The notes beneath the pieces are model-generated. The model did not search any database, was not told where the DNA came from, and worked only from the letters and a program-made list of their open reading frames with translations. A program made the position numbers and the translations under genes. Source: an uncultured Planctomycetia bacterium (lineage in GTDB: Bacteria > Omnitrophota > Gorgyraeia > 2-01-FULL-45-10). From it: a stretch of DNA of 64,000 bases. Of the stretch, positions 7,492-26,789 are shown one piece after another. Position 1 is the first letter of the stretch; each line of letters begins with the position of its first letter. Location: NCBI GenBank assembly GCA_964433975.1, contig CAYSSS010000001.1, positions 78,257 through 142,256 of the forward strand, read 5' to 3'.

Positions 7492-8795
7492 AGGTTTGTC
7501 TCATACATCCGCCGCAGCCCAATTCACTGGACGATAGGCTCGATATCCCGCTTGGGCAGCTATATCTGGCCACCGTGCTAAAGGAAGCGGGCTACGAAAC
7601 CAGGGTAGTTGACCTCTCTTCCGTGCCAATGGAGCGTTGGGCCGACCTCATCGGATGGGCGGATGTCTACGGCTTCACGGTGTATACTCCGTCGTATTAT
7701 ATATGCAAAGAGATACTGAAGCTTGCCAAGCAGAATAACCCCCGCGCCATAAGCGTCGCCGGAGGCGCGCATCCATCCGCTCTTCCGGAAGAGACTTTAA
7801 AAGATTTTGATTATGTAGTTATCGGCGAGGGGGAATTTGCCATGCGTGATCTAGTCGATAACTTAGCGAAGGCCAGGCCGATGGAGTCCAGGATCATCAG
7901 GTATCCTCTCATCGCGAATTTAGATGAACTGCCATATCCAGACCTTGACTTGATCGACATACATTCATACCATAGAAAGGTGGATGGTCAGCCGAGCTTG
8001 AGCTTTGTTACGAGCCGGGGGTGCCCCAATACGTGTGCGTTCTGCTGTAACTTCATGTTCGGCAAAAAGATCAGGTTCAGGCACCTTGATAACGTTGTCA
8101 ACGAGTTATCGTCGATAAAATCGAAATATGGCGTGAGGAATTTTATTTTTTATGACGATACGATGACCCTGGACAAAAACCGGGTTAAAGAGATGTCTGA
8201 GAAGTTTAAGCGGCTTGACATACGTTTCCGGGCTAATGGCACAGTAAAGGTGAATGATCCGGAAGTTTATGAGGATCTTTACGTCGCGGGCTGCAGGAAT
8301 ATCGCGTTTGGCGTTGAGACCGGCTCTCAGGAATTACTGCGCAAGATGAAGAAGCACACAACGGTAGACCAGATAAAAAAAGCTGTTAAAAACGCCAAGG
8401 CCGCCGGATTAATAGTTAAAGTATTCCTCATAGTCGGCTTTCCCGGAGAGACCTATCAGACCATACAGGAGACCGCCGATCTGATGCTTGAGTGCCGGCC
8501 GAACCAATATACGCTCTTTAACTTCGTCCCGTTTCCCGGCTGTGATGTTTGGCACAATCCCAAGAATTACGGCGTTACCTATTTTGAAAAGAACTACGAG
8601 CAGTACTTCAACATAGCCGGGTACCAGGAGGGAGGGCTCACGGTAGATACGGAGACTATGAAGAGGGCCGATGTCAAAGATATGAGGGAAAAACTGCTCG
8701 AATCCCTGTGCCGGTTAGACTGGTCCGGTGACGTACAGAATTACCAGTATAAGCTGCAACCTAAATACACCCCCCACACCCGCCAGTCCCCATAA
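7488..8795 (+). CDS. B12-binding-domain radical SAM enzyme (class B radical SAM, candidate C-methyltransferase).
   Basis: The N-terminus MKVCLIHPPQP...LATVLKEAGYE is typical of the cobalamin-binding domain. The CxxxCxxC cluster is at TSRGCPNTCAFCC. Length is 435 aa. Confidence 0.8.
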   Translation: MKVCLIHPPQPNSLDDRLDIPLGQLYLATVLKEAGYETRVVDLSSVPMERWADLIGWADVYGFTVYTPSYYICKEILKLAKQNNPRAISVAGGAHPSALPEETLKDFDYVVIGEGEFAMRDLVDNLAKARPMESRIIRYPLIANLDELPYPDLDLIDIHSYHRKVDGQPSLSFVTSRGCPNTCAFCCNFMFGKKIRFRHLDNVVNELSSIKSKYGVRNFIFYDDTMTLDKNRVKEMSEKFKRLDIRFRANGTVKVNDPEVYEDLYVAGCRNIAFGVETGSQELLRKMKKHTTVDQIKKAVKNAKAAGLIVKVFLIVGFPGETYQTIQETADLMLECRPNQYTLFNFVPFPGCDVWHNPKNYGVTYFEKNYEQYFNIAGYQEGGLTVDTETMKRADVKDMREKLLESLCRLDWSGDVQNYQYKLQPKYTPHTRQSP

Positions 8796-10991: not shown

Positions 10992-12118
10992 TCCCCGTAA
11001 ACGAACCTTTAATAGGAAAAGAAGAGCTAAAAAATATCACCGATTGCGTGAAGTCCGGATGGATATCTTCGAAGGGGAGGTACATAAAAGAGTTTGAAGT
11101 GAAATTTGCCGAATTTTGCGGTGTCCGGTATGGTATTTCCACGACGAGTGGAACAACGGCGCTGCATCTTGCCCTTGCTTGTTTGGGGATAAGAAAAGGC
11201 GACGAAGTCATCATGCCCACCTTCACGATGATCGCGACAGCTTACGCCGTCATGTATCTTGGCGCCAAACCGGTATTTATCGACAGCGAAGAGAGGACAT
11301 GGAATATGGATGTGTCCAAGGTTGAAGAATCGATCAACCCCAAGACCAAAGTGCTGCTTCCCGTGCATATATACGGCCATCCTGTCGATATGGATCCCAT
11401 CATGGCCTTGGCAAAAAAACATGATCTTTTTGTAATAGAGGACGCCGCTGAGGCTCATGGCGCGAAATATAAGGGCAAGGTTTGCGGCTCGATGGGCGAT
11501 ATCAATTGTTTTTCGTTCTACGCGAACAAGGTGATAACGACGGGCGAGGGGGGTATGGTGGTTACCGATGACAAAAAATTATCCGAAAAGGCGAGGCTGC
11601 TGAAAGACCTTTCCCATTCCCCGAAACAGCGCTTTTTGCATACAGCGCTTGCTTATAACTATCGTATGACAAATATGCAGGCGGCGATAGGGCTTGCCCA
11701 GACCGAAAAGGCAAGAGCTCTTATTGAGAAAAAAAGGCGCATAGCCGGCCTCTATAATGATAACCTGAAAGATATTGAAGGGTTAAGATTGCCGATAGAG
11801 GAGAAGTGGGCGAAGAGCGTATACTGGATGTATTCAATTCTGGTTGAAAAAGATTTCGGACTGGATAGAGACCGATTTAGGTCAGAATTATTGAAAGAAG
11901 GGGTCGAGACGCGTTCATTCTTCGTTCCTATGCACCGGCAGCCGGTGATACAAAAGATGGGGCTCGCGGGCAAAAAGAGGAGATATCCCGTTTCCGATTA
12001 TATTTCCGACCATGGCCTCTATCTGCCTACCGGACTTGCTCTTAAACATAAAGATGTATTGCTTGTCTGCGAAAAGATAAGAAAGATACAGAAGAGATAT
12101 GCGTCCAGAACGCGATAA
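10988..12118 (+). CDS. DegT/DnrJ/EryC1/StrS-family PLP-dependent sugar aminotransferase (candidate GDP-perosamine synthase).
   Basis: PLP-lysine region FSFYANKVITTGEGGMVVTDD. Length 376 aa. Located downstream of gmd. Confidence 0.85.
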   Translation: MIPVNEPLIGKEELKNITDCVKSGWISSKGRYIKEFEVKFAEFCGVRYGISTTSGTTALHLALACLGIRKGDEVIMPTFTMIATAYAVMYLGAKPVFIDSEERTWNMDVSKVEESINPKTKVLLPVHIYGHPVDMDPIMALAKKHDLFVIEDAAEAHGAKYKGKVCGSMGDINCFSFYANKVITTGEGGMVVTDDKKLSEKARLLKDLSHSPKQRFLHTALAYNYRMTNMQAAIGLAQTEKARALIEKKRRIAGLYNDNLKDIEGLRLPIEEKWAKSVYWMYSILVEKDFGLDRDRFRSELLKEGVETRSFFVPMHRQPVIQKMGLAGKKRRYPVSDYISDHGLYLPTGLALKHKDVLLVCEKIRKIQKRYASRTR

Positions 12119-13508
12119 AATAAATTTTATCCTGTCGCACCTGGTATTTCTCTTATCGATCATCGTAATATTCTATATCCCCCGATTCTATCCCGTAGTC
12201 CATGAAAATTTTTTGCCTCCCATGGATAGGGTTTTGCGTTTCTATATCATAGGGGTATTCTCCGTATCATTTCTGGCGTATTATCTGTGCGTCCATTTCT
12301 ATAAAAAATCCGGGATATCGGTCTTTAAGCCGGGCTCTCTATCGGTATATTTCTGGATAAGTACGATAGCCGTATTTCTAGTGCTCTGCAGCTCTTCCGC
12401 GCTATTGTCTCATGATCTGTTCGAGTATTCCGTAAGAGGCCGCATGCTCAGTATCTATAAGCTAAATCCGTACCTTCATGTGCCATTGGAGATCAAGAGT
12501 GATATCTTCTTTCCGTTGATATTCTGGAAAAGTACTCCGGAGTGTTATGGGCCGTTATGGGTGGCTATAGGGGCGGTGCATACTCTCTTTTTTAAAAACA
12601 GCGTAGCCCTGACCTCATTCATGCATAAGCTGGTGCTTCTGGCTTTTTTAGGCATGACTTCATCTGTTTTTTACAGACTATGCAAGGACAATATCTCCGA
12701 GGACGCCGGAACGATGACTTTAGCCTTTTTACTAAACCCTTTAGTCCTGGTAATGACGCTGATAGACGGCCATAACGAGATCGCCATGGCTTTTTTTATA
12801 CTTTCGGCCTTTTATCTTCTGGTTAATTCGAAATATAAGCTTTCATCTGCGTTTCTCGCGCTTGCCATAGCCGTCAAGTTCGTCTATATACTGTTCATTC
12901 CTTTATTTATCCTTCATCTCTTATCCCGCAAGGAGGTGCAGGGTTTTGGATGGAAAGTCTATACCTTGATAATGGGAGGCGCCGTCTTTCTGTTTACCAC
13001 GGCAGTCATGTGGCTTCCGTTCGGCAGGGAGAGCGTCAAAGCCATTATTTACTATTACAGCGAATTAAGTAAAAATTTCTGGGTCGATTCGATCCCTTAC
13101 GCCGTATATTTTGTTTCGGAAAAGATGGGGTTCGCGATCTCGAAAGACCTGCTCGCGAATATTTTCTTTGCACTCTTTATAGCGGCCTATCTCTGTATAT
13201 TGGGATATTTCCTGAAGAGGACGAAGATGGACAAACAGGCATTATTCACATCATCCGCTCTAATATTGCTCGCGCTGCTATTTACCAATTCATCGCCGTT
13301 CCAGACCTGGTACTTGATATGGGTGATCCCTTTCATTTTATTAAGCAGTATAAGACTGAAGTTCCAGCTCGTATTTCTCCTGTCCTATTTCTTAATAATG
13401 ACCTTCTGGAAACGCATGTTTGTACTGGCCGTGCCGATGATGGCTGTATGGCTTAGCATGTATTTAGTTGACAAAAAATTTCATAGATTCCCGCTTGCGC
13501 GGGAATGA
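12099..13508 (+). CDS. Polytopic membrane protein, GT-C-like (DUF2029/GT87-type mannosyltransferase-like).
   Basis: 469 aa with more than 10 TM helices. The loop motif HDLFEYSVRGRMLSIYKLNPY resembles the DUF2029 D-D-x-Y-R-Y...G-x-NPY signature. Confidence 0.45.
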   Translation: MRPERDKINFILSHLVFLLSIIVIFYIPRFYPVVHENFLPPMDRVLRFYIIGVFSVSFLAYYLCVHFYKKSGISVFKPGSLSVYFWISTIAVFLVLCSSSALLSHDLFEYSVRGRMLSIYKLNPYLHVPLEIKSDIFFPLIFWKSTPECYGPLWVAIGAVHTLFFKNSVALTSFMHKLVLLAFLGMTSSVFYRLCKDNISEDAGTMTLAFLLNPLVLVMTLIDGHNEIAMAFFILSAFYLLVNSKYKLSSAFLALAIAVKFVYILFIPLFILHLLSRKEVQGFGWKVYTLIMGGAVFLFTTAVMWLPFGRESVKAIIYYYSELSKNFWVDSIPYAVYFVSEKMGFAISKDLLANIFFALFIAAYLCILGYFLKRTKMDKQALFTSSALILLALLFTNSSPFQTWYLIWVIPFILLSSIRLKFQLVFLLSYFLIMTFWKRMFVLAVPMMAVWLSMYLVDKKFHRFPLARE

Positions 13509-14929
13509 CAGAAGTGAAAATACGCGAGGCTATTTTGAAGGATCGTGAGGCTATTTTGAAGGATAGGGTATTCTGGCTGCTTCTGGTATTTGCCGCTCTT
13601 TATATACTGGGTAATATAGGCACGGGAAGCCTTTCGACGTTCGACGAGGCGATTTACGCCAATATATCAAAAAACATCGTCAAAACAGGCGACTGGCTGG
13701 TAATGCGCCAGGGTGTTAAGCCATGGTTCGATAAGCCGCCCCTATATATGTGGTGTACGGCCGTTCTTTACAAAATATTGGGAGTGAGCGAATTTTCTAC
13801 AAGGCTGACATCGGGCATACTTGGCATAGCGGCGGTTATGATCCTGTATCTCTTCGCAAAAAAAATGACAGATAAGATCACGGCCTCTCTGGCCGGCCTG
13901 ATACTCTTGGCTCTGCCGCACTATATCCATTTTTCCAAGATGGGTATGATGGATGTCCCGATAACCTTTTTTACGCTGCTTACGCTTTATCTCTTTTGGC
14001 TTGGAATGGAGAGGGAAAAATATCTATTTTATTCAGGGGCGATACTCTGTGTAGCATATTTAATGAAAGGCTTTGCGGCATTTTTGCCTTTATTCATAAT
14101 CATCGTTTATGCGGTACTATCCAAAAATGTCCGCTTTCTGCTTAAGCGGCAATTCCTGCTTGGCACGGCGCTGGCTCTTTCAGTGATCTTTGTATGGCAT
14201 CTGGCACAACTTATGCTCTTGGGGCCGACCGCCCTTAAAGAATATTTTGGTTTTCATATATTTCAAAGGGCGACTTCCGTGCTCGAGGGACACAAAGGGG
14301 GATTCGATTACTATATACGGGTAATTTTTAAGAAGAACATCCCCTGGTCAATTTTGATCTTCTCCTCTATTTTTTACGCGGCTTATAGATATTTTAAAGA
14401 CAAGGACAAAAGGCTGTTGTTTTTGTTGAGCTGGGTATTTGTCACATTCTTTCTGTATAGCGCGGTAAGGACCAAATTGCAATGGTATATCATGCCTATA
14501 TATCCGGCCCTCGCGCTATTGTCGGCGTTTTTGCTGAAGGGATTTTTAAGAAAGAATCTCATTTATATCGCGTTTGTCGTTATCCTGGCAGGGATGCTGG
14601 TCCAGGTCCCGCTATCGTGGGCATTTAGGCTGGACTATACCCCTGATATAAAGAATGTTTCGCAGATAGGGAGAGGTCTTCATACAGACGGAAATGATAT
14701 ATATATGATAAGCGGGAACGACTCCGAGATATTCTATTACGACTTCGCTATAGAGCTTGATAAAGAAGTATATCGGTCCCTTATGTCGCAAGGCAAGGGG
14801 AAGATCTATTGCATAATACTGCCGGGCATGTTTAAAGATAAGAAGGAAGATTATAATTTTGACGCGGAGCCAATTTATGAGTCAAACAGGACTTCCTTTT
14901 ACAGAATAAAATTTAAGGACAGGAAATAA
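13505..14929 (+). CDS. GT-C fold membrane glycosyltransferase, ArnT/PMT_2-like.
   Basis: GSLSTFDEAIYANISKNIVKTGDWLV...FDKPPLYMW matches the ArnT D-E...KPPL loop signature. The ATGA start/stop overlap with the upstream gene indicates translational coupling. Confidence 0.7.
   Translation: MTEVKIREAILKDREAILKDRVFWLLLVFAALYILGNIGTGSLSTFDEAIYANISKNIVKTGDWLVMRQGVKPWFDKPPLYMWCTAVLYKILGVSEFSTRLTSGILGIAAVMILYLFAKKMTDKITASLAGLILLALPHYIHFSKMGMMDVPITFFTLLTLYLFWLGMEREKYLFYSGAILCVAYLMKGFAAFLPLFIIIVYAVLSKNVRFLLKRQFLLGTALALSVIFVWHLAQLMLLGPTALKEYFGFHIFQRATSVLEGHKGGFDYYIRVIFKKNIPWSILIFSSIFYAAYRYFKDKDKRLLFLLSWVFVTFFLYSAVRTKLQWYIMPIYPALALLSAFLLKGFLRKNLIYIAFVVILAGMLVQVPLSWAFRLDYTPDIKNVSQIGRGLHTDGNDIYMISGNDSEIFYYDFAIELDKEVYRSLMSQGKGKIYCIILPGMFKDKKEDYNFDAEPIYESNRTSFYRIKFKDRK
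13523..13564 (+). repeat. Perfect-but-one tandem duplication of a 21 bp unit (cgcgaggctattttgaaggat, then cgtgaggctattttgaaggat) within the 5' end of the GT-C gene.
   Basis: Read directly from the sequence. It encodes REAILKD REAILKD in frame. Confidence 0.85.
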
Positions 14930-14931
14930 AT

Positions 14932-15645
14932 ATGTCTGTTTACTTATCGATAATAATACCTGCTTATAACGAAGAAAAGAGGATAGGCCCGACCCTTTCC
15001 AATGTGTGCGGCTTTTTTAAAACAAAAAATTATGAGTACGAAGTTATTCTTGTCGATGACGGCAGCAGCGACAGGACCGTCTCGGAAGCCGAAGATAGCG
15101 AGCTGGCGAATACAGGTAAGCTGAAGATAGTCAAAAACAGCGTGAATAAGGGTAAGGGGTTCTCCGTAAAGAACGGCATATTAAAGAGCTTAGGTGAGTA
15201 CGTGCTCTTCAGCGACGCGGACTTATCTACGCCTATAGAGGAGGCGGATAAGCTCTTCGATCACATAGGCAAAGGTTACGATATAGTGATCGGCTCGCGC
15301 AGTATCGCCGGATCCAACGTAAAGGTACGCCAGCCTTTCTATAGGGAGAAGATGGGCAGGATATTCAATTATTTTATAAATAGCCTCTTGATGGGCGGGT
15401 TTATCGATACGCAATGCGGTTTTAAGCTTTTCAAGGGCAGTGTGGCCAGGCAGATCGGTAAAGAGCTTACAATAAACGGTTTTTGTTTTGATGTCGAGAT
15501 GCTCTATCTAGCCAGGAAAGAGGGCTATAAGATCGCGGAGGTAGGTATCACGTGGGAGAATTCACCTCAAAGCAAGGTGCGCGTCTTTAGCAGCTCTCTT
15601 TCTATGTTTATAGATCTTCTAAAGATAAAGAGAAGGCACGGATGA
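14932..15645 (+). CDS. GT2 polyprenyl-phosphate sugar synthase (DPM1-like).
   Basis: IIIPAYNEEKRIGPTL and LVDDGSSD motifs. 237 aa. Confidence 0.8.
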   Translation: MSVYLSIIIPAYNEEKRIGPTLSNVCGFFKTKNYEYEVILVDDGSSDRTVSEAEDSELANTGKLKIVKNSVNKGKGFSVKNGILKSLGEYVLFSDADLSTPIEEADKLFDHIGKGYDIVIGSRSIAGSNVKVRQPFYREKMGRIFNYFINSLLMGGFIDTQCGFKLFKGSVARQIGKELTINGFCFDVEMLYLARKEGYKIAEVGITWENSPQSKVRVFSSSLSMFIDLLKIKRRHG

Positions 15646-17363
15646 GATTTCATAAATCAAATTACCCGATATTAGTCATCATAGCCATAGGATTGTCTCT
15701 TCGTATATGGGGAATCAATTTTGGTCTGCCATACCAATTTCACCAGGATGAACCGATCATAGTCAATCATGCCCTCGCATACGGGACGGGGGACCTAAAC
15801 CCGCATTTTTTCATAATTCCACCACTCGCTTCTTATCTACTGTTCGGTTTTTATGTCCTTTATTTTTTTATAGGCAGCATATCCGGCATATTCACAGGCG
15901 TGGAACAGTTCTCCTTAAGTTTCTTCAGAGATCCAACGCCTTTTTATATTATCGGGAGGGTTATCCTTGGCGTATTGCCGAGTATCTTGAGCGTATATTT
16001 AATATATAAGCTGGCGATAAGGTTTTTTTCAAAGAAAGCTGCGCTTTACGCGTCGCTTATCATGGCCGTTACATTTTTAAACGTTATCAACGCGCATTAC
16101 GCGTATGCCGACAACCTGCTCGTATTTTTTGTGCTACTGGCCTATCTGGCAATGTCGATGCTTATGGACAGTCCAAAAATATCCAATTATGTTATTGCGG
16201 GGATATTAACCGGTCTGGCTATTGCCACGAAATATAATGCCGTATTGCTTGTTGTGCCATTGCTTGTTGCTCACATCGTAACTTTCCGTCATTGCGAGGA
16301 GTCCCGCCGCTTTTTGGCGGGACGACGAAGCAATCTCATTAACCTAAATTTGCTGATATTCGGCGCAACGGCCGTCTTTACGTTTATCATATGCAATCCC
16401 TACTCTCTTCTCGATGCAGGCTTCTTCTGGGAGTCACTGACCCACAGGATAAGGGGCGGCTACAGGGGGATGGGACATCACCTTACATATTCATTATTTG
16501 AAGGCGCTGGAGCTGCTCCGGTCATATTGGGAATCATAGGATTGGGCTGGCTCTTAAAAAAAGATCTTAAGAAAGGGATCTTTCTCATCTCTTTTCCGGC
16601 TATTTTTTATCTGCACCTTATTTTCAAAAGCCAGTCGTTCCCGAGGTATGCGCTGCCCGTGATCCCTTTTTTGGCCATCGGACTATCGTTTTTACTCTTC
16701 GGTCTATACGAAAGACTGAAGACGAACGCTTTAAAGGCGGCCATAGTCGCCGTCTCGTTGATTCTTGTTATGCCTACGGCCGCGAAGTCTATCAAGGCGG
16801 ACATGCTCTTTGCGGGCAAAGATACGCGTATAGAGGCAAAGGAGTGGATGGAGAAGAATATACGGCCCCGGACGCGTATAGCGCTTGCCCACACGTTCTT
16901 CAGTCCTCCGCTTGAACAGACGACGGAACAGTTGAAAGAGAAAGAGGGCATACTTTCAGGGCAGCCGGAACTGAAGGATCTGAAGAGCAAAAAACTGGAA
17001 CTTCTCATAAAAGGCCGTAAGGCCCCCATTACATATCAGGTATACTACTTAAGGGGTGACAATGAAGCTCCCGGCCAATTCCTGAATTTCTGGCCGGTGA
17101 TAGAGAATTCAGTGAACGATCTACGGAAAAATGATATCACTTACGTAATCTTTAATAATACGGACCCGTCCGAAGCGTTAAAAGAGTTGCAAAAGGAAGC
17201 GGGTAGTATATTTAAGCCGGTTGCCGTATTCAGCCCTTATGTGGATGATAAATTCAGGCTTCCATACGACCCGATAGAGCTTACATGCTTGCCCGCGGGG
17301 ACTAAAGAGCTCTTCTCAAGGCGCGCCGCGGGGCCATATCTGGTCATCTATAAAATAAAATGA
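15642..17363 (+). CDS. GT-C fold membrane glycosyltransferase, ArnT/PMT_2-like. It carries an in-frame hairpin repeat insertion.
   Basis: 573 aa polytopic, with the loop YQFHQDEPIIVNHALAYGTGDLNPHFFIIPPL (D-E...PPL). Confidence 0.6.
   Translation: MRFHKSNYPILVIIAIGLSLRIWGINFGLPYQFHQDEPIIVNHALAYGTGDLNPHFFIIPPLASYLLFGFYVLYFFIGSISGIFTGVEQFSLSFFRDPTPFYIIGRVILGVLPSILSVYLIYKLAIRFFSKKAALYASLIMAVTFLNVINAHYAYADNLLVFFVLLAYLAMSMLMDSPKISNYVIAGILTGLAIATKYNAVLLVVPLLVAHIVTFRHCEESRRFLAGRRSNLINLNLLIFGATAVFTFIICNPYSLLDAGFFWESLTHRIRGGYRGMGHHLTYSLFEGAGAAPVILGIIGLGWLLKKDLKKGIFLISFPAIFYLHLIFKSQSFPRYALPVIPFLAIGLSFLLFGLYERLKTNALKAAIVAVSLILVMPTAAKSIKADMLFAGKDTRIEAKEWMEKNIRPRTRIALAHTFFSPPLEQTTEQLKEKEGILSGQPELKDLKSKKLELLIKGRKAPITYQVYYLRGDNEAPGQFLNFWPVIENSVNDLRKNDITYVIFNNTDPSEALKELQKEAGSIFKPVAVFSPYVDDKFRLPYDPIELTCLPAGTKELFSRRAAGPYLVIYKIK
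16288..16335 (+). repeat. Small MITE/RPE-like palindromic element inserted in-frame in a GT-C gene (copy 1).
   Basis: gtcattgcgaggagtcccgccgctttttggcgggacgacgaagcaatc. The hairpin is GTCCCGCC-N8-GGCGGGAC. The termini gtcattgcgaggagtcccgccg and gggacgacgaagcaatc are shared exactly with copy 2 at 20170-20237. Confidence 0.7.
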
Positions 17364-19534
17364 CGACACTTAAAAATCATATAGGGTTCGTAGCGTTTTT
17401 TTCTTTCATAATAGCGGTATTCTTATACCCCCTCATAACCATGCGGGGAGGATTTATATGGGGAGATTCATTCGTTCAATTCTATCCTTGGTCGAAGGTT
17501 TACGCCGAAAGCATAAAATCTTTTTCATTTCCCTACTGGATAAGAGCAATGGGCAGCGGATTTCCTCTCATGGCCGAAGGCCAGGTGGGAGGTTTTTATC
17601 CGCTTAATATATTGTTATTCTTTATCCTGCCGTTCAAGATCGCGTATAACTATTCGGTCGTCCTTCACTTCGTAATGGGGGGTATTTTTACTTATCTCTA
17701 CAGCCGTAAGTTGGGCGCGGATCAATCCGGCGGCAGCCTCGCTGCGCTGCTCTTCTGTTTCGGTAGCGCTTACGCCGGATGTTTTTATAATATAGTTACG
17801 CTACGCACTCTGGCGTGGTTCCCTCTGGTTCTACTACTGATAGAGCGCTATTTTGAGAAGGAAGAGCCAAGATATATATTGTTCGGCGGTGTAATACTGG
17901 GATTGCAGTTTCTTGCGGGATTCGTGCAGATGGCCGCATACAGCGCTATTTTCTATTTAGCGTATTTTATTTATAAGGCGATAATAGAGAAGAAGAGCCT
18001 ATGGAAGATCGCAAGGTCTTTATCAGTCTTTTTTACCACAGCCATTTTGATAGCATTGCCTCAACTTTTGCTTACCTATCAATTGGTCGGATTATCGAAC
18101 AGGGAAGGGGCCACAGCGGGATTTGCGCTATGGGGATCGGTCTTTCCTTCGGGATTATTGGGAACCGTCTTTCCTTACTCCTTCTCTTTTAAGGGAGATC
18201 TTTATGTAGGCATATTGAGCCTTTTATTTGTTATATTCAGTGCCTACTCACTAAAAAAATATAAAAATACAAGGCCGCTTGTGTTGATCCTGATACTGTC
18301 TCTCTTCATGGCTCTCGGGAGGTACAACCCTATTTATTTTGCGTTAATAAAGATCACCAAATTATATATCTTCAGGAATCCGTCCAAGTTCTTATTTTTC
18401 GCCTCCTTTTCATTATCGGTCCTGGCCGGGATAGGGTTGACCCGGTATTTTAATGCCAAAGATGCCGCACCAAAACGAAAAAGTAATTTTTTATTTTTCA
18501 TTACTCTAACCACAGCGGGAATTGCGTTTTTTGCGGTAAAACTTTCACTGATCTTGTTCAGGCGCAATATTATCAGTTTTGGAGATTATTTTGTACGCAA
18601 TTTTATATACAATAAACCGCATCACCGTTACAGCCTGGAATTTTATATAGATAAGTTCAGGATGTCGTATGACGCGATATTGGGCAATTTTTCCTTCTCG
18701 AGCGTTTTCGTGATTTTGTCATGGGTTGTGTTTATTGCAGCGTTTTTATTCTGTTTGATACGTTTAGGGAGAAAGTCGAAGTATATTGCTATCGCGTTGA
18801 TATTTATCGATATCTTTATATTCAGTCTTTACGGAAAAGGTTTTAGCCATAATATAAAGCCATTTTCATATTTGGCTGCGGAAGATAGGGTCTTTCTGGA
18901 ATACCTTAAGAGGGACCGCGATATATATAGAGTGCTCCCATTTAATATAAGGTCCGGAAGATTGCCCAATTGGGCCATGCCTAATTCGAATATCATTCAT
19001 GGAATAGATAGCGTCGCGTGCTACACGCCGCTTGTAACCAGGGCCTATAGAGATAAGCTTCTTGATCTTGGGGCAATAGATGATTCTCTGGGGTTTGTTA
19101 ACGCCAAAGAAGGCGCGATAAGCGCCGATACCCAGATGCTGCGGTTACTGAACGTTAAGTATATAATATCGCCGGATGAGTTGAATGATCAAGTGCTGGA
19201 AAAGGTATATGCGGATAACAGTCTATTCCTGTACAGGATGAAGGGGTCTTATCCACGGCTATTCTTTTCCTCTAGTATAGCGCCAGATGTAAGGCAGTCG
19301 CCTTTAGCGAGCACTAAAATATTAACATATAGAGATGGATTTATCGAAGCTGAGATAACGGCATATGATGATGGATTTGTAGTCTTTTCTGAAAACTACT
19401 ATCCGGGATGGCGCGTGTTTATCGACGGGAAAAAGAAAGATATAATAAAAGTAATGGATATCCTGCAGGCCGTTGCGATAGACAAAGGATATCATAAAGT
19501 TTTGTTCATCTACAGACCACGGTTTTTAGGATAA
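17360..19534 (+). CDS. YfhO-family GT-C membrane glycosyltransferase.
   Basis: 724 aa. The N-terminus ...GGFIWGDSFVQFYPWSKVYAESIKSFSFPYWIRAMGSGFPLMAEGQVGGFYPLN resembles the YfhO signature (…QHYPF…WNPY…G.P). There are many TM helices and a large C-terminal domain. Confidence 0.6.
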   Translation: MTTLKNHIGFVAFFSFIIAVFLYPLITMRGGFIWGDSFVQFYPWSKVYAESIKSFSFPYWIRAMGSGFPLMAEGQVGGFYPLNILLFFILPFKIAYNYSVVLHFVMGGIFTYLYSRKLGADQSGGSLAALLFCFGSAYAGCFYNIVTLRTLAWFPLVLLLIERYFEKEEPRYILFGGVILGLQFLAGFVQMAAYSAIFYLAYFIYKAIIEKKSLWKIARSLSVFFTTAILIALPQLLLTYQLVGLSNREGATAGFALWGSVFPSGLLGTVFPYSFSFKGDLYVGILSLLFVIFSAYSLKKYKNTRPLVLILILSLFMALGRYNPIYFALIKITKLYIFRNPSKFLFFASFSLSVLAGIGLTRYFNAKDAAPKRKSNFLFFITLTTAGIAFFAVKLSLILFRRNIISFGDYFVRNFIYNKPHHRYSLEFYIDKFRMSYDAILGNFSFSSVFVILSWVVFIAAFLFCLIRLGRKSKYIAIALIFIDIFIFSLYGKGFSHNIKPFSYLAAEDRVFLEYLKRDRDIYRVLPFNIRSGRLPNWAMPNSNIIHGIDSVACYTPLVTRAYRDKLLDLGAIDDSLGFVNAKEGAISADTQMLRLLNVKYIISPDELNDQVLEKVYADNSLFLYRMKGSYPRLFFSSSIAPDVRQSPLASTKILTYRDGFIEAEITAYDDGFVVFSENYYPGWRVFIDGKKKDIIKVMDILQAVAIDKGYHKVLFIYRPRFLG

Positions 19535-19537
19535 ATA

Positions 19538-21205
19538 ATGAAGATAAAAATATTTGTAATAATTCTACTGTCGATATTCGCCGTATTAACGATATCGAGT
19601 ATGCGGCAAAATTCGGCTACTTGCGACGAGATAGCGCATCATATACCCGTAGGATATGTTTTATTGAATAAATGGGATTTCAAGATGGATACATCGCAAC
19701 CGCCACTGCCGCGATATATAGTAGCTTTACCGTTGAAACTATTTATGAATATAAATATGCCCGATGACAGGGCTCTTTGGAGGGTGCAAGACCGGTCTAT
19801 TTTCGGCAGGGATTTTTTCTACAAATATAATCGTGATCAGATCAAGATGGTCTTTTTTGCCAGGATGGCCGTTGTTTTTATAGGTATGTTATGCGGTCTG
19901 CTGCTATTTATATGGGCAAAGTCACTTTGGGGCGAAAGAGCCGCTCTATTTAGCCTGTTTTTTTACGCTCTTTCTCCAAATATATTGGCTCATGCCGGTC
20001 TTGCCACCACTGATATGGTAGCGACGTTTTTTATACTCCTCTCTTGTTATTCATTCTGGCTCTTCCTGAAGAATGCTTCAATCACAAATATCATATTCGC
20101 GGCTGTCTGTCTTGGGCTGGCTGAGCTCTCTAAATACACGGCCATCCTGCTTTATCCGATATTCTTACTGTCATTGCGAGGAGTCCCGCCGAAGACCCTC
20201 GACCTCGCCGAGAGGCGAGCGGGACGACGAAGCAATCCCACAATTTCAAAGTTCCTGTCCGTTATCTTTTTATCTTTGATCGTTGTGTGGGCCGCCTATG
20301 GATTTGAATTTCAACCATTACTTAAAGATTCGATGCGCCTCGATGAAAAACTTCAGATCGCACACAATATCGCTAAAAAAGTATACCCGCATATCAGCCC
20401 GGCGGCAATTGACCGCCTGGACGATTTTTTACTGAAGGTCCCGGTGCCGTTGGGCAGCCACATTCTCGGGATAATGGGCGTGTTTCGTCACGGTTACGAA
20501 GGGCATAGTACTTATTTTTTGGGGAGGTGGTCAAGTCACGGCGATCCGCTCTATTTTTTAGTCGCTTTTTTGATAAAGACACCCATACCGCTAATCATTT
20601 TTTTGCTCATTGGTATTTTCATATTTTTGAAGCAGAGATCGCAGATGGGAGAGAGGTTTATTTTTATCGTAGCGGCCGTATTCTTTGTGGCGTCATCTTT
20701 AAGCGGGCTGAAGTTGGGGTTAAGGCACATATTGCCCCTTTACCCGTTCTGTTTCATGATATGCGGCGGTGCCGTAGTGCTATTGAAGAAGAAATATGTT
20801 AATATACTATTGTATAGTCTAATGGCATGGTATGCGTTTATATCGGTCAAAACATGGCCGCATTATTTGGGCTACTTTAATGAAGCGATAGGCGGTCCGG
20901 CAAACGGATATAAATACCTCAGGGATTCAAACGTTGATTGGGGGCAGGACCTGCCGTCACTATCGCGGTATATGGAGAAAAACGGTATAAAAGAGATAGC
21001 GCTTGAATATTTCGGACAGGCGGACCCGGTTGTTTACGGCGTTCATTACAGAAAGTTTATGCCGGATGAATTTGAAAAGCCGCATGACGCGGTTTATGCC
21101 GTAAGCGCCCAATATCTGGAGGGTGTCAAATGGACGAAGGATCATAAACCTGCGGCAGCCGCAGGCTATTCTATATTTATCTATGATTTTGCCAAGGAAA
21201 AATAG
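19538..21205 (+). CDS. GT-C fold membrane glycosyltransferase, ArnT/PMT_2-like. It is a paralog of 5752-7491 and carries an in-frame hairpin repeat insertion.
   Basis: ATCDEIAHHIPVGY...QPPLPRYIVALPL, and the C-terminal YFNEAIGGPANGYKYLRDSNVDWGQD, shared with the 5752 gene. Confidence 0.65.
   Translation: MKIKIFVIILLSIFAVLTISSMRQNSATCDEIAHHIPVGYVLLNKWDFKMDTSQPPLPRYIVALPLKLFMNINMPDDRALWRVQDRSIFGRDFFYKYNRDQIKMVFFARMAVVFIGMLCGLLLFIWAKSLWGERAALFSLFFYALSPNILAHAGLATTDMVATFFILLSCYSFWLFLKNASITNIIFAAVCLGLAELSKYTAILLYPIFLLSLRGVPPKTLDLAERRAGRRSNPTISKFLSVIFLSLIVVWAAYGFEFQPLLKDSMRLDEKLQIAHNIAKKVYPHISPAAIDRLDDFLLKVPVPLGSHILGIMGVFRHGYEGHSTYFLGRWSSHGDPLYFLVAFLIKTPIPLIIFLLIGIFIFLKQRSQMGERFIFIVAAVFFVASSLSGLKLGLRHILPLYPFCFMICGGAVVLLKKKYVNILLYSLMAWYAFISVKTWPHYLGYFNEAIGGPANGYKYLRDSNVDWGQDLPSLSRYMEKNGIKEIALEYFGQADPVVYGVHYRKFMPDEFEKPHDAVYAVSAQYLEGVKWTKDHKPAAAAGYSIFIYDFAKEK
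20170..20237 (+). repeat. Small MITE/RPE-like palindromic element inserted in-frame in a GT-C gene (copy 2, the longer variant).
   Basis: gtcattgcgaggagtcccgccgaagaccctcgacctcgccgagaggcgagcgggacgacgaagcaatc. It has the same 22 bp and 17 bp termini as copy 1. Relative to the element it is read in a different frame (SLRGVPP... versus HCEESRR...). Confidence 0.7.
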
Positions 21206-21229
21206 GAGAGAAATAGATCAGGCTATTTT

Positions 21230-22804
21230 ATGAAGATATTGCTGATATATCCTAATAAAACGATGACTACCCGCATACCTATAGGGATAGGTTATTTAAT
21301 CGCTTACTTGAAACATGCGGGGCATGAAATAGATATTTTTGATACGACTTTCATGGATTGCGGCAGCGGAGTAAGCGATGATAATTTGCGCGCCGCTTCA
21401 CTTCAAGTGCGTAACCCTGATTTCGCTCAATATAATCTGGTTACAAAAAAAACTGATATAACGAATGAATTATACGAAAAAGTAGAAGTTTTTAAGCCTG
21501 ATATAGTCGCGGTAAGTGTGGTCGACCCAAACTATCGCTTTGGTTTAGTGCTAGCAAAAAAAATAAAAGAAATAAATAAAAATATTTTTGTAATTTTTGG
21601 CGGTCCTACTGCTACATTTTCTCCCGAAGAGGTGATCATAGAAGATGTTGTCGACGCGATTTGTGTGGGCGAAGGAGAGCAGGCCTTGCCCGAATTATGT
21701 GCCGCTATTGAGAAAGGCTGGGAAATAAAGAATATAAAAAATATTTGGTGTAAGGAGAAGGGGGGTATTTATCGTAATGATGTCCGTCCATTGATCGATC
21801 TGGATACGCTTCTGCCTCCGGACTGGAGCATGTTCGATGAGCGTCACCTTATACGCCCTTTTGGCGGCAAGATGTACCGCATGGGTGTTTTTGCCATTAC
21901 CAGGGGGTGTCTGTTCCGATGTACGTATTGCGCTAATTTTGCCTTGTCAAGTATTTACAAAGGAAAAGGATCCCTTTATCGTATTCAGGACCCGGAAAAG
22001 ATGGTAAACCAAATAGCGGAGTTTAAGCACCGTTATAATTTAAACTTTGTTTTTTTTGTAGATGATATTTTCCCATTACATAAGCCGGATGTTTTAGATA
22101 AATTTTGCTCGCTCTATAAAGAAAAAGTACGCCTTCCGTTTAATGTCAGTTTGCATGCCGAGCTTGTCAATGAAGCACAGTTTGCTAAGCTGGTTGATGC
22201 GGGATGCCGTAACGTTTGTTTAGGTTTAGAATCGGGCAGTCCCAGGATAAGAGAAGCGATCTTTGATCGAAAATGCAGCGATGCCCAGATTATAGAGGCT
22301 TTCCGTCTGGCGCATAAATATAAAATACGAAGTTCGACATTTAATATTATCGGCATACCCGGAGAGTCCAGAAAAGATATTTTTCAAACCATTGATTTAA
22401 ATCGCAAGGCAAACCCCGCCACCGCTACCCTTACTTTTTTACATCCTTATCGCGGCACTAAAGTCAGAGATATTTGCATAAAAGAATCAATATTTGATAT
22501 TGGTAAAGAAAAGGAGCATGAGGACGGTTACCGGACAGATTCTTGTTTAAATCTCAAAAATATTTCCGCCAAAGAATTAAAAGGTATTTTTAAAACATTC
22601 CAGATGTATTTGAAAATGCCAAAAATATGCTACATTTTTATACGTCTGGCCGAAGGCGAATCAATTTTTTCTAAAATAATTTTTTCTTTTTTAAAGAAGA
22701 TATTTTACTGTATTACCTACAAAGAAGCGGTATGGGATTTTAGTAATGATCTTGCATTTTCTTCGAATAATTATGATAAATCGGCAGAAGGAACCCAAAA
22801 ATGA
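21230..22804 (+). CDS. B12-binding-domain radical SAM enzyme.
   Basis: N-terminus MKILLIYPNK...IGYLIAYLKHAGHE. CxxxCxxC at ITRGCLFRCTYCAN. 524 aa. Confidence 0.8.
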   Translation: MKILLIYPNKTMTTRIPIGIGYLIAYLKHAGHEIDIFDTTFMDCGSGVSDDNLRAASLQVRNPDFAQYNLVTKKTDITNELYEKVEVFKPDIVAVSVVDPNYRFGLVLAKKIKEINKNIFVIFGGPTATFSPEEVIIEDVVDAICVGEGEQALPELCAAIEKGWEIKNIKNIWCKEKGGIYRNDVRPLIDLDTLLPPDWSMFDERHLIRPFGGKMYRMGVFAITRGCLFRCTYCANFALSSIYKGKGSLYRIQDPEKMVNQIAEFKHRYNLNFVFFVDDIFPLHKPDVLDKFCSLYKEKVRLPFNVSLHAELVNEAQFAKLVDAGCRNVCLGLESGSPRIREAIFDRKCSDAQIIEAFRLAHKYKIRSSTFNIIGIPGESRKDIFQTIDLNRKANPATATLTFLHPYRGTKVRDICIKESIFDIGKEKEHEDGYRTDSCLNLKNISAKELKGIFKTFQMYLKMPKICYIFIRLAEGESIFSKIIFSFLKKIFYCITYKEAVWDFSNDLAFSSNNYDKSAEGTQK

Positions 22805-25576: not shown

Positions 25577-25807
25577 TCACCCCATCCTAATGATAACGAA
25601 TAACTAGTAATGATTTTTGTTGCATTCATAGCGATATGGGGTAAACTGTGAGGCAGCGATAACGTCAAATAACGCTTGACTTCGCATAATGTTTCTATAA
25701 AATGCTATATACGGTTGACAAGCTTATCAAAATTTAGAGGCATACCGGTTGTAAAAATTGAGGACTGTCATTTGATTAAACAAGAAAAATCGACAAAAGG
25801 ATAGAAT

Positions 25808-26539
25808 ATGAAATTAAACTTAACATCCATAAACAACAGGCTAAAATCCTGTTTGGCAAGAATCTTATCGAACATACAGATTAAGCATAAGATACCCGTA
25901 AACAATGGCTATGTATATTTGAATGATGGCTGCTTCCTGGACGCCTACAAGGCAGAAACATTCATGGTGGACTGGATAAACTCAATAGGCGGTGGTGTAG
26001 TTTACGACATAGGCGCGAATGTAGGAACCTATTCGATCCTTTTGGCGAAGAAATGCAAAGTATACTCCATAGAACCCTCCATAAAAACGCTTAATATACT
26101 ACAGAAAAATCTCGTATCTAACAACGTGTTTGACAAGGTAACCATACTACCTTTCGCGGTATCCGATAGCTGTAAAGTACAGAAATATGGCCATTATGCT
26201 ACGGTTGTTAATATTGACGCAAGAGGATATACCGAAGATTCTAAATACTTCACGGACAGAAAAATGACGCAAACCCACGATCTATTGTCGTTTGACCTCG
26301 ATACATTAGTCAAATTATTTAATCTCCCATATCCTGACTATATAAAAATTGACGTAGACGGCGCCGAACTTAACGTATTAAAAGGCGCCAAGGAAACTAT
26401 GAAGCATGCCAAGGTTATGATAGTAGAAATAAATGACAAAGAGGCGCTAAGCCTATTAAAGGATTTCTCGGTTACACGGTTGACCAATTACGATAACGAA
26501 CATGACTATTATCTATGCAAAAACAAACAAGTAGAATGA
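25808..26539 (+). CDS. FkbM-family SAM-dependent methyltransferase.
   Basis: VYDIGANVGTYSILLAKKC motif I, typical of the Methyltransf_21/FkbM family. 243 aa. An RBS, AAAGGA, lies upstream. It is preceded by a 231 bp intergenic gap. Confidence 0.75.
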   Translation: MKLNLTSINNRLKSCLARILSNIQIKHKIPVNNGYVYLNDGCFLDAYKAETFMVDWINSIGGGVVYDIGANVGTYSILLAKKCKVYSIEPSIKTLNILQKNLVSNNVFDKVTILPFAVSDSCKVQKYGHYATVVNIDARGYTEDSKYFTDRKMTQTHDLLSFDLDTLVKLFNLPYPDYIKIDVDGAELNVLKGAKETMKHAKVMIVEINDKEALSLLKDFSVTRLTNYDNEHDYYLCKNKQVE

Positions 26540-26717: not shown

Positions 26718-26757
26718 CTAATGACTACTAATGACTAGTAATTACTAGTAATGAATT
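26718..26757 (+). repeat. Four tandem imperfect 10 bp repeats (ctaatgacta / ctaatgacta / gtaattacta / gtaatgaatt) immediately upstream of a promoter. Candidate operator or iteron-like site.
   Basis: Read directly from the sequence. The related motif ctaatgata...actagtaatga recurs at 25588-25614. Confidence 0.6.
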
Positions 26758-26760
26758 CAG

Positions 26761-26789
26761 TTGACATTTGCAATGATCTGGGGTATCAT
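26761..26789 (+). promoter_or_regulatory. Near-consensus sigma70-type promoter, TTGACA-N17-TATCAT.
   Basis: -35 TTGACA at 26761-26766, a 17 bp spacer, and -10 TATCAT at 26784-26789. The RBS AAAGG at 26801-26805 lies 7 nt before the ATG at 26813. Confidence 0.55.

Follow-up and report, generated by a model that had tools for sequence, protein, structure and literature searches.

The segment of 68 nt at positions 20170-20237 (plus strand) of the window, by which we mean the whole 64-kb stretch of DNA that was analysed, is probably a palindromic repeat of the REP/RPE type, small, non-autonomous and present as a solo copy, and we regard this explanation as likely as a whole, including its state as a passenger in its host gene and the way in which it spread. 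It lies in frame in a gene for a membrane glycosyltransferase of the GT-C class in an uncultured Omnitrophota bacterium (gene 2; 19538-21205, plus strand), where it would supply residues ~212-234, read as (L)SLRGVPPKTLDLAERRAGRRSNP. A companion copy (copy 1; 16288-16335, plus strand; GT tag + 46 nt, that is 48 nt) is found in a paralogous gene (gene 1; 15642-17363, plus strand), where it is read as (R)HCEESRRFLAGRRSNL. An earlier note on this DNA had described a hairpin-forming, repeated mini-element that is read through in frame, present here as a 68-bp copy with an inner ctcgcc/ggcgag repeat and running in different frames through its two hosts; coordinates, sequence and translation (HCEESRRFLAGRRSNL vs SLRGVPPKTLDLAERRAGRRSNP) bear out this description, and what the note missed is the membership of the element in a large REP/RPE-like class.

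The full sequence of copy 2 is GTCATTGCGAGGAG TCCCGCC GAAGACCCTCGACCTCGCCGAGAGGCGA GCGGGA CGACGAAGCAATC. Its 5' conserved block (20170-20183, plus strand), which is identical in copy 1, comprises the GT(C) tag, the outer stem strand ATTGC and the purine-rich internal-loop strand GAGGAG. The variable apical hairpin (20184-20224, plus strand) places the inner stem TCCCGC(C)/GCGGGA around an apex of 28-29 nt, within which CTCGCC (20204-20209) and GGCGAG (20214-20219) form a small inverted repeat with the loop GAGA. The 3' conserved block (20225-20237, plus strand), CGACGAAGCAATC, consists of a doubled CGA unit followed by the outer stem strand GCAAT and a C, and is read as RRSN. The two copies have the same ends (GTCATTGCGAGGAGTCCCGCC ... 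GCGGGACGACGAAGCAATC) and the same inner stem; the loop of copy 1 is 7 nt long (GCTTTTT), and the tag is CGTC at copy 1 and TGTC at copy 2. The 14-mer CATTGCGAGGAGTC occurs twice in the 64 kb, as does the 15-mer GACGACGAAGCAATC, in both cases at these copies only, and a covariance model of the family, run on the window with filters off, likewise returns the two copies only (E = 1e-10 and 0.025; next match E = 0.86). As RNA, copy 2 has a predicted fold of -31.4 kcal/mol (z = -3.3), and an Rfam 15 search of window positions 15500-21500 at E <= 10 gave no relevant match. Peptides predicted to span the insert include GVPPKTLDLAER and FLAGR. An assembly artefact can be rejected: the exact 555-aa protein, insert included, is encoded on four contigs, one of them from the Logan assembly of SRR8437217.

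These two copies belong to a much larger family, whose core can be written as yGTC-ATTGC-GAG-(variable, covarying hairpin)-CGAA-GCAAT-Cy: an unpaired yGTC tag, a 5-bp ATTGC/GCAAT outer stem, a GAG/CGAA internal loop (doubled to GAGGAG/CGACGAA in the window copies), a hypervariable apical hairpin and a Cy(C/A) tail. Among 150 aligned members GTCATTGCGAG is invariant or nearly so, and the 3' core CGAAGCAATC is conserved family-wide. Scored over 133 copies, the tag has T (67) or C (51) at position -3, G (128) at -2 and T (130) at -1, after which comes C; the outer-stem pairs are A-U in 147/149, U-A in 149/149 and U-A in 147/149. The inner stem covaries strongly, 132 cells being changed on both sides vs 40 in shuffles, with the observed value reached in 0/500 shuffles. 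GCAAT is followed by C, then by a pyrimidine (C 56, T 75), then by C (79) or A (29), with CCAG tails in alphaproteobacterial copies and CTC or CCC elsewhere. The inner segment ranges from ~5 to 62 nt and the solo half-element from 26 to 68 nt; the inner stem of the window copies recurs with apices of 5-35 nt in >119 metagenome stretches. The usual arrangement is a tail-to-tail inverted doublet with perfect GTCATTGCGAG termini: 275 copies in 120 genome loci include 93 convergent doublets vs 6 divergent and 8 tandem pairs, with a median spacer of 23 nt. Most copies are intergenic, and a minority lie within genes with the frame open. Compared by eye with the internal loop, the K-turn, loop E, the hammerhead core, SRP domain IV and attC were each rejected as a motif, since none fits.

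Pattern scans match genomes from at least 14 groups of phylum rank as well as viral contigs and metagenomes, with >120 genome stretches, >120 viral stretches and >119 metagenome stretches (the last of the same inner-stem subfamily). The groups include Chloroflexota, Patescibacteria, Omnitrophota, Alpha- and Gammaproteobacteria, Zixibacteria, Ignavibacteriota, Bacteroidota, Gemmatimonadota, Verrucomicrobiota, Acidobacteriota, Nitrospirota, Desulfobacterota and Bacillota, and others. Copies unannotated in every case are carried by plasmids of Methylosinus, Methylocystis, Novosphingobium, Calothrix, Legionella and Halomonas; examples are pOB3b1 of Methylosinus trichosporium OB3b (at 100,183) and pNL2 of Novosphingobium aromaticivorans (at 154,840). 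Bradyrhizobium is also among the culturable hosts with plasmid copies, and the genome of a member of the Rickettsiaceae (Tisiphia; L016, L035) holds copies as well. Other genic copies in frame occur in a LeuRS-like ORF of 926 aa from a Parcubacteria MAG (L073), in a PurQ-like ORF (L041) and in an ORF of 2666 aa that contains two doublets (L113). These matches point to one family whose ends are strikingly constant from phylum to phylum, on phage contigs and on plasmids from bacteria that can be cultured, and which, from the point of view of annotation, accounts for numerous small ORFs that are spurious and for odd inserts in MAG proteins (SLRG..RRSN, HCEE.., VIAR..TKQS, LLAMT, PRND).

Both host genes match PMT_2/PMT in Pfam and their products are 26% identical; gene 2 encodes a GT39/ArnT-like protein of 555 aa with orthologs in Omnitrophota, and gene 1 a protein of 573 aa. 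The AF2 model of the gene 2 protein is a confident one (pTM 0.93, mean pLDDT 93.6), and its sole low-confidence stretch is the insert (pLDDT 72 and 51, residues 211-230), which the model places between helices 200-215 and 234-253. The native loops are rich in K and R (KKERA and GRVKEGRAGF, for example). The element fills a loop between two transmembrane helices, a loop that is probably cytoplasmic, and displaces most of a short basic native sequence; its translation product would be a disordered, arginine-rich linker; we infer that the copy in gene 2 is a tolerated passenger and not a functional domain. It had been proposed that both copies sit at the same topological position. They do share the inter-helix loop, but not an identical site, the distance from the KY.A.LL motif to the insert being 13 residues for copy 1 and 6 for copy 2. 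The paralog at 5752-7491 indeed lacks the element, as seen both in the paralog alignment and in the covariance-model scan, and so does a fourth PMT_2 paralog (13505-14929).

Open frames suggest that the element is translated. A mini-intron or hop element, which is spliced out of the mRNA or skipped during translation and contributes no residues, would give a different account of the same genes. The stable hairpin would suit it, as would element lengths that are not multiples of three (46, 66 and 34 nt). However, the frame is open through every genic copy and continues into the conserved downstream frame, net length changes are multiples of three, the nested indels of the related copy in L367 (-3, -3, +21 nt) are all in frame, and five of the six frames through the conserved blocks are free of stop codons; we therefore regard excision or bypass as very improbable. 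With the element read as a translated insert, selection would spare only insertions in frame whose 3' arm encodes the basic RRSN, and this may be why AGRRSN is shared by the two copies and why the GT-C loop is filled repeatedly.

The loop is empty in most relatives. No element is present at the gene 2 site in 58/60 of the best aligned orthologs, to which a broader scan adds only one case (P0082), bearing a doublet of a sister family; in all, carriers amount to 3/120 homologs of gene 2 and 2/120 homologs of gene 1. Orthologs without the insert are thus available for each host gene, both sites being empty in the syntenic relative L121 and the gene 1 site in L123. The occupied loops are those of window gene 1 (with the same allele in L367), of window gene 2, of L123 gene 2 and of L363, which holds a doublet of the sister family, that is four genes on four contigs, reached through three to five gain events. 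In three singlets the 3' arm is read as RRSN, and at every insert host codons were replaced, with net gains of +9, +7 and +8 aa. Such replacement and recurrence fit either a permissive basic loop or a replacement anchored on homology. Of the site-preferring insertion that had been claimed, the repeated occupancy of the loop stands, whereas a preference belonging to the element itself cannot be told from selection for a permissive loop. Target-site duplications, for which the loop comparisons were searched, were seen at none of the insert sites, the inserts replacing host codons instead. A comparison of filled/empty pairs, made to find duplications or clean boundaries, yielded one phage case, in which L126 differs from four relatives by ~11 extra bases with no clear duplication; a second candidate pair proved to be a false match.

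The same comparisons bear on the idea that the window copies are identical through gene conversion between the GT-C paralogs, or that the segment was once present in the paralog at 5752-7491 and then lost. The copies do lie only 3.9 kb apart, in paralogous genes, and have the inner stem TCCCGCC/GGCGGGA in common. But identity among these paralogs is 26% and 18%, their DNA is dissimilar everywhere beyond the element, the copies are unlike in length and frame, and the same ends recur at hundreds of unrelated loci. Gene conversion between the paralogs is excluded because most orthologs of each host gene lack the insert, and we attach next to no probability to this scenario, which the earlier note had named as the one that would overturn its view. 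The unrelated flanks of the two copies and the empty sites of the syntenic relatives point the same way. The recency that the note deduced from identical ends is not supported: the same ends are found in at least 14 groups of phylum rank, and on phage contigs and plasmids too, so that they carry no information on age.

Copy 1, for its part, sits on an old allele. L367 is filled at the same two junctions, and 44/46 element positions match between it and the window, including all third codon positions, although the flanks within the patch are only ~80% identical and four-fold sites of gene 1 only 56%. L367 is itself a recombinant, with a patch of ~300 bp centred on the element in a gene that is otherwise ~99% identical to that of L373. 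(L363, L367, L368, L370 and L373 come from sequencing runs between SRR22387853 and SRR22388342.) A single ancient vertical insertion as the whole history of the gene 1 site can be rejected on this account, and also on the finding that the filled alleles fall apart in a loop-masked tree.

As for the spread of the element, we propose that it may move as a single-stranded DNA hairpin that an enzyme of HUH/Y1 type, or a similar one, recognises in trans, that recombination of copies over short homologies may act in place of this route or beside it, and that element-bearing alleles may then have passed between related strains by homologous recombination. In the fetched loci and the filled/empty comparisons we saw neither a transposition event nor a mobilising enzyme. 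All-against-all ORF clustering in 120 loci revealed no linked gene, the shared neighbours being housekeeping genes only, with no transposase. A phmmer search of ~3 Mb with IS200 TnpA and an E. coli RAYT as queries detected two RAYT-like ORFs, neither of them flanked by the element; one clear REPtron (L346) consists of a RAYT-like ORF flanked by GTAG REPs.

A different mode of entry can be imagined, in which the loop receives the element from another copy by short-homology template switching or gene conversion, anchored on the last codons of the loop where these resemble the 3' block CGAAGCAATC. It would explain why host codons are replaced and why neither the 3' junction nor the RRSN frame varies. 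Empty gene 1 loops do end in CGAAGTAATC (L368, 9/10), CGAGGCAATC (L369, 9/10), CGCGGCAATT (L371) and TTAAGTAATC (L370), and these resemblances sit exactly at the junction; the gene 2 copies of the window and of L123 agree at the 3' junction and differ at the 5' junction and in the apex; the empty allele L372 has TCCCGCC at the insert site; all insertions are net replacements; and the recombination patch that distinguishes L367 from L373 is centred on the element. On the other hand, such resemblances may just as well be what is left of older, decayed copies, the sister allele of the window in L121 shows little similarity (CGCGCTGGTT), homology at gene 2 is weak, and the cases are few. We therefore consider homology-anchored entry possible but somewhat unlikely.

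The passenger reading itself meets a difficulty. Copies found at the same place in two diverged genomes are 94% identical vs 76% for their flanks (pooled over 20 pairs, chosen for intact ends and to that extent biased), and a purely neutral passenger should not outlast its flanks in this way. The hairpin could then be an element selected within the gene or mRNA and maintained at the nucleotide level, for instance a signal for translational pausing or for stability, placed behind a transmembrane helix, or a site bound by a conserved factor. The match of 44/46 at the gene 1 site against 20% divergence of the flanks (P about 0.003) speaks for it, together with the pooled pairs, the covariation of the apical stem and a sense strand that folds slightly better than the antisense one (163 vs 90). 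Against it, few of the gene 1 and gene 2 homologs are filled, the apex is hypervariable, and intergenic singlets show only a weak orientation bias relative to neighbouring genes (78 same, 56 opposite); the pooled comparison favours pairs with intact ends; and homogenisation between copies gives the same pattern, the apex GCATTTT being common to both copies of L367. We judge selection for such a role in the host gene to be unlikely. It is slightly less doubtful, though still a tentative view, that the GTCATTGCGAG...CGAAGCAATC hairpin is an actively maintained module, more than decaying selfish DNA. This would account for ends and inner stem that are nearly unchanged at the same site despite flanks diverged by 20-25%, for the same 21 nt in phages and in over a dozen phyla, and for the lack of a linked transposase. 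It would require either a host factor that is conserved and acts in trans, or a homology-anchored copying by which the copies homogenise themselves; under the latter, certain protein loops, that of the GT-C proteins among them, would be heritable landing pads at which copies are repeatedly gained, replaced and exchanged by recombination.

The reading that we prefer, that of a solo palindromic repeat carried as a passenger, leads to a comparison with several known systems. The architecture recalls integron attC sites, with a conserved outer stem, an unpaired centre, an inner stem and a variable tip on a folded single strand, but inspection of the sequence reveals neither GTTRRRY/RYYYAAC core sites nor a cassette array, and the context is not that of an integrase. 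Bacterial MITEs that lengthen or break ORFs, such as those of Coxiella burnetii or the Correia elements of Neisseria, are likewise small and non-autonomous, have terminal inverted repeats and can add coding sequence; here, however, no target-site duplication is seen, the solo half measures 26-68 nt, and there is no related full-length IS. Closer are the GTAG REPs and REPINs mobilised by RAYT (Y1 HUH), which are also short, imperfect, tagged hairpins, dispersed and non-autonomous, with inverted doublets foldable into a long hairpin. They differ in that the tag here is yGTC, that no RAYT flanked by the element is found in ~3 Mb, and that REPIN families are lineage-specific whereas the present family has the same ends across phyla.

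Translated palindromic repeats within genes were first described in Rickettsia, and RPEs are the classic case of innovation in protein loops. In the work of Ogata and colleagues from 2000 and 2002, RPEs are reportedly palindromic repeats translated in frame, in varied frames and at surface-exposed or permissive positions. The present element is likewise a palindromic repeat lying in frame in ORFs, its translation being read from the open frames, and would extend this phenomenon to Omnitrophota and candidate-phyla bacteria. RPE-1, by comparison, is ~100-150 bp long and restricted to Rickettsia; and RPE insertions in general are described as simple additions, whereas here host codons are replaced and the same loop is refilled. 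An NCBIfam scan of the host proteins and of the element-encoded peptides gave no RPE-type match.

The closest relatives are the CGTC REPs, and the architecture suggests that the family belongs to the CGTC superfamily. As defined in the article text of Di Nocera et al. 2013 (BMC Genomics 14:522; PMC3733652), CGTC REPs carry a CGTC/TGTC tag (with variants including CCTC), A-T at the first two stem positions and mostly a CCA tail, with an uninterrupted stem of 8-9 bp closed by a loop of 4-5 nt; HH dimers predominate, there is no dedicated transposase, translated intragenic copies are known (RPE-4 and RPE-6 included), dRS3 of Neisseria belongs to the superfamily too, and bulged members may have escaped the search. 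The exact sequence of our element does not occur in the text or supplements of that article (Figure 2 aside), and a full-text literature search returned only unrelated primer-type matches, so that it is absent from the REP literature examined. The likeness is nevertheless extensive: an unpaired CGTC/TGTC tag, a stem that opens with A-T followed by T-A, a predominance of inverted dimers with no linked transposase, a mostly intergenic location with translated genic copies, a spread over several phyla and, according to the same text, dimer peptides that run through the sense arm and then the antisense arm, as in the present doublets. The tail, short and C-rich, resembles CCA in alphaproteobacterial copies (CCAG) and departs from it elsewhere (CTC or CCC). 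In contrast, the stem here has 5 contiguous pairs, an internal loop and a variable apex in place of the 8-9 bp stem and 4-5 nt loop, and the host range is far wider (CPR, Chloroflexota, Omnitrophota, phage contigs).

A canonical REP of the CGTC-1 type is present in the window itself, at 13482-13511 on the minus strand (cTGTC ATTCCCGC GCAA GCGGGAAT CTa), where it matches our family model weakly (E = 0.86) and has the perfect 8-bp stem, 4-nt loop and TGTC tag of the CGTC-1 definition. It lies antisense over the junction of genes 12099-13508 and 13505-14929, and its AATGAC end provides the overlapping ATG start of the second and TGA stop of the first. Its plus strand, GAT TCC CGC TTG CGC GGG AAT GAC, reads DSRLRGND, which is not in the frame of the upstream gene and is one of the CGTC-1 peptides in the table of Di Nocera et al. 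2013 (PMC3733652). The termini GTCATT...AATC of CGTC-1 as printed there (GTCATTCCCGCGAAAGCGGGAATC) are literally shared with the present family. The culturable hosts of this family, together with the near-isogenic filled and empty alleles of L367 and L373, provide concrete material for the question, posed since 2013, of how CGTC-type REPs are mobilised.

The segment 20170-20237 (copy 2, GTCATTGCGAGGAG-TCCCGCC-GAAGACCCTCGACCTCGCCGAGAGGCGA-GCGGGA-CGACGAAGCAATC) is a solo REP/RPE-like palindromic repeat lying in a GT-C loop of gene 2 (19538-21205), a permissive loop in which it is tolerated and almost certainly translated; the mobile, translation-tolerant mini-element proposed in the earlier note is broadly borne out, as a solo repeat with an open frame. 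This class of repeat is already known; what is new is the structural variant that the family represents and its breadth, together with hints that the element is maintained at the nucleotide level and turned over specifically in this loop. Copy 1 (16288-16335, GTCATTGCGAGGAG-TCCCGCC-GCTTTTT-GGCGGGA-CGACGAAGCAATC) lies in the paralogous gene 1 (15642-17363). Both host genes are long ORFs matching PMT_2/PMT (GT-C glycosyltransferases), and their proteins share 26% identity. The end words of 14 and 15 nt each occur twice in the 64 kb, solely in copies 1 and 2, and these are also the sole convincing matches in the window to a covariance model of family members run with filters off. A weak degenerate look-alike (TGTCATTGCCGGCTCTCCGAATCCC, 56234-56265, minus strand; tag and AT..AT ends, poor pairing, model E = 0.9) is probably a chance match or a decayed copy. 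The window holds other repeats as well: AT-rich direct repeats, CTAATGA(C/T)TA(C/G)TAATGA..., occupy both intergenic gaps around the ORF 25808-26539 (25587-25622 and 26718-26763), and the 73-78% identity of segments 26006-26388 and 43294-43661 indicates paralogous genes.

The same loop is occupied in few relatives. Besides the protein of this Omnitrophota genome, an element is found in the loop of only two of the best 120 gene-2 homologs, P0006 (locus L123; a short form, read SLRGAKRRSNL) and P0082 (locus L363; a sister-family doublet, GTCATCCTGA..GAAGGATC / GCCATTCTGAG..CGAAGAATC), and among the best 120 gene-1 homologs in two, the window protein and P0123 of locus L367. In the L363 doublet (gene-2 ortholog, 1717-3531) the outer stems carry compensatory changes, ATCCT/GGAT and ATTCT/GAAT for ATTGC/GCAAT, with GAG/CGAA kept, and a DDE_Tnp_1 transposase gene (3710-5236) lies just downstream. 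Conversion between the two paralogs is excluded because the syntenic locus L121 lacks the element at both sites and L123 lacks it in gene 1. An assembly artefact is unlikely, since the exact insert-bearing protein recurs on four contigs, one of them from a Logan assembly of a sequencing run.

In each filled loop, host codons have given way to the insert: hardly any of the native 10-codon loop of gene 1 is left (net +9 aa), the 68-nt element of gene 2 gives a net +7 aa, and the 36-nt element of L123 gene 2 a net +8 aa. No target duplication is visible at these three sets of junctions. The AlphaFold model of the gene-2 protein (mean pLDDT 93.6, pTM 0.93) is confident save for residues 211-230, which are the insert, between helices 200-215 and 234-253; helix order would place this loop in the cytoplasm. 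Native loops are rich in lysine and arginine, and the RRSN reading of the 3' arm appears to suit a basic cytoplasmic loop better than DEAI or TKQS, which may be why all three singlets share the same 3' frame. The different frames noted earlier for copies 1 and 2 are confirmed for the 5' arms, the 3' arms being read in the same frame (GRRSN). As to position, the two copies do lie in the same loop, but are offset by about 7 residues; likewise, the loop is filled repeatedly, as "site-preferring" insertion would have it, but the cause may lie in selection or in short homology instead of targeting.

The earlier note also took the identical ends as a sign of recent insertion. This does not stand: the ends are identical across phyla, so that their identity is uninformative on age, and copy 1 is not recent, because both its junctions recur in L367 (AACTTCC/GTCATTGC ... 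GCAATC/CCATTAA). The apices, GCATTTT in L367 and GCTTTTT in copy 1, are of the same rare type; in the L367 copy the GAG/CGA unit is not doubled, and a 21-nt palindrome, CCTGCCTTGCCGGCAGGCAGG, is nested in frame in its 3' conserved block (~5170-5190), all indels being in frame. Apices similar to this nested palindrome (GCCTGCC..GGCAGGC) occur in locus L048. L367 (4501-6237) and the empty locus L373 (1127-2821) form a near-isogenic filled/empty pair, ~99% identical outside a patch of ~300 bp that has the loop at its centre and is only 56-67% identical; the filled allele was therefore acquired from a diverged relative through homologous recombination (the nearest sequences to the patch are just ~80% identical), and such movement accounts for the scatter of filled alleles on the loop-masked tree. 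Within the patch the element is identical to copy 1 at 44/46 positions, exceeding its flanks (P ~0.003) and far above the 56% identity of four-fold sites between window and L367. In 20 other pairs of diverged loci, each locus with a copy, the element is 94% identical against 76% for the flanks, a figure biased upward because the pairs were chosen for intact ends. A second, antisense copy in L367 (~3735-3776) replaces the junction of a 472-aa PMT gene and the next GT2 gene; at this junction L373 (~330-420) has an extra 34 nt between 8-nt direct repeats (AATGACGG), and the window and L121 have no antisense copy. The apex variant GCATTTT common to both L367 copies suggests that copies have been homogenised, or were recently copied, within a genome.

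"Empty" alleles are not featureless. The gene-1 loop ends CGAAGTAATC, CGAGGCAATC, CGCGGCAATT and TTAAGTAATC resemble the 3' block of the element, CGAAGCAATC, exactly at the junction, and an empty gene-2 allele has TCCCGCC at the site. These resemblances may be what is left of older copies, in which case turnover in the GT-C loop would be long-term, or they may be microhomology that was there beforehand and anchored replacement through template switching or gene conversion; the latter would account for the fixed 3' junction of the window and L123 gene-2 copies and for the loss of host codons.

A model search of the fetched loci doubled the copy number and revealed the true core of the family, yGTC / ATTGC / GAG / variable hairpin / CGAA / GCAAT / C-y, of which the window form GAGGAG/CGACGAA is a common subtype with the GAG/CGA unit doubled; the smallest members have 26 nt (GTCATTGCGAGCGAAGCGAAGCAATC). 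The outer stem shows no variation. Covariation is strong in the apical stem (doubly changed cells number 132 versus 40 in shuffles, with 0/500 shuffles reaching the observed value). Since apices span 5 to 35 nt within the TCCCGC/GCGGGA subfamily of the window, the extra 29 nt of copy 2 are ordinary variation. It follows from the sequence that five of the six frames of the conserved blocks lack stop codons. No Rfam family matches the element.

Copies lie mainly between genes or at gene ends. Among 275 copies in genome loci there are 93 convergent inverted doublets (median spacer 23 nt), 6 divergent and 8 tandem pairs, and 70 solo copies; intergenic singlets share the orientation of neighbouring genes only slightly more often than not (78 versus 56). 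In-frame intragenic copies occur in a LeuRS-like ORF of a Parcubacteria MAG (one singlet, HCEESEGRRSNP, and one doublet), a 2666-aa ORF (two doublets) and a PurQ-like ORF. The neighbourhoods compared have no gene in common. The fetched DNA has a single clear RAYT (REP-associated transposase) gene, and the repeats next to it are GTAG REPs rather than copies of the present element. This RAYT-like ORF (L346, ~6800-7560; GTAGGGACAGACC... on both sides) forms a classical REPtron, and copies of the present element on its contig are not associated with it.

Scanning one genome per species for CATTGCGAGGAG-N10-40-GACGAAGCAATC gave at least 120 stretches; hosts among the matches listed are Chloroflexota, three Patescibacteria groups, Omnitrophota, Bradyrhizobium and other Alphaproteobacteria (including a Rickettsiaceae symbiont), Gammaproteobacteria, Zixibacteria, Ignavibacteriota, Bacteroidota, Gemmatimonadota, Verrucomicrobiota, Acidobacteriota, Nitrospirota, Desulfobacterota and Bacillota. 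The element is also in at least 120 viral and at least 119 metagenome stretches, and, unannotated, on plasmids of cultured Methylosinus, Methylocystis, Novosphingobium, Calothrix, Aulosira, Legionella and Halomonas. In one viral contig (L169, 2693-2820) a minimal 25-nt form (GTCATTGCGAGCCTGCGAAGCAATCTGGTCGTC) stands four times in a head-to-tail array with a 33-nt period, which if translated would give an 11-residue repeat.

Di Nocera et al. 2013 (PMC3733652) divide REPs into GTAG- and CGTC-tagged superfamilies. In their description, CGTC REPs have a CGTC or TGTC tag, A-T pairs opening the stem and a CCA-like tail, occur predominantly as inverted dimers, lack a dedicated transposase and include translated intragenic copies, among them Rickettsia RPE-4 and RPE-6; in the text and supplements consulted the sequence of our element was not found, and the authors state that bulged members may have been missed by their own search (PMC3733652). 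The window itself holds a textbook CGTC-1 REP, TGTC-ATTCCCGC-GCAA-GCGGGAAT-C (13482-13511, minus strand), antisense over the stretch where gene 12099-13508 runs into gene 13505-14929; both the stop of the former (TGA) and the start of the latter (ATG) come from its AATGAC end. The present family departs from CGTC REPs in its stem of 5 bp, its GA-rich internal loop, which is conserved, and its hypervariable apex; because tag, first stem pairs, dimer habit and termini (GTCATT...AATC, literally identical to those of CGTC-1) agree, its architecture points to a place among the CGTC-type REPs as a structural variant.
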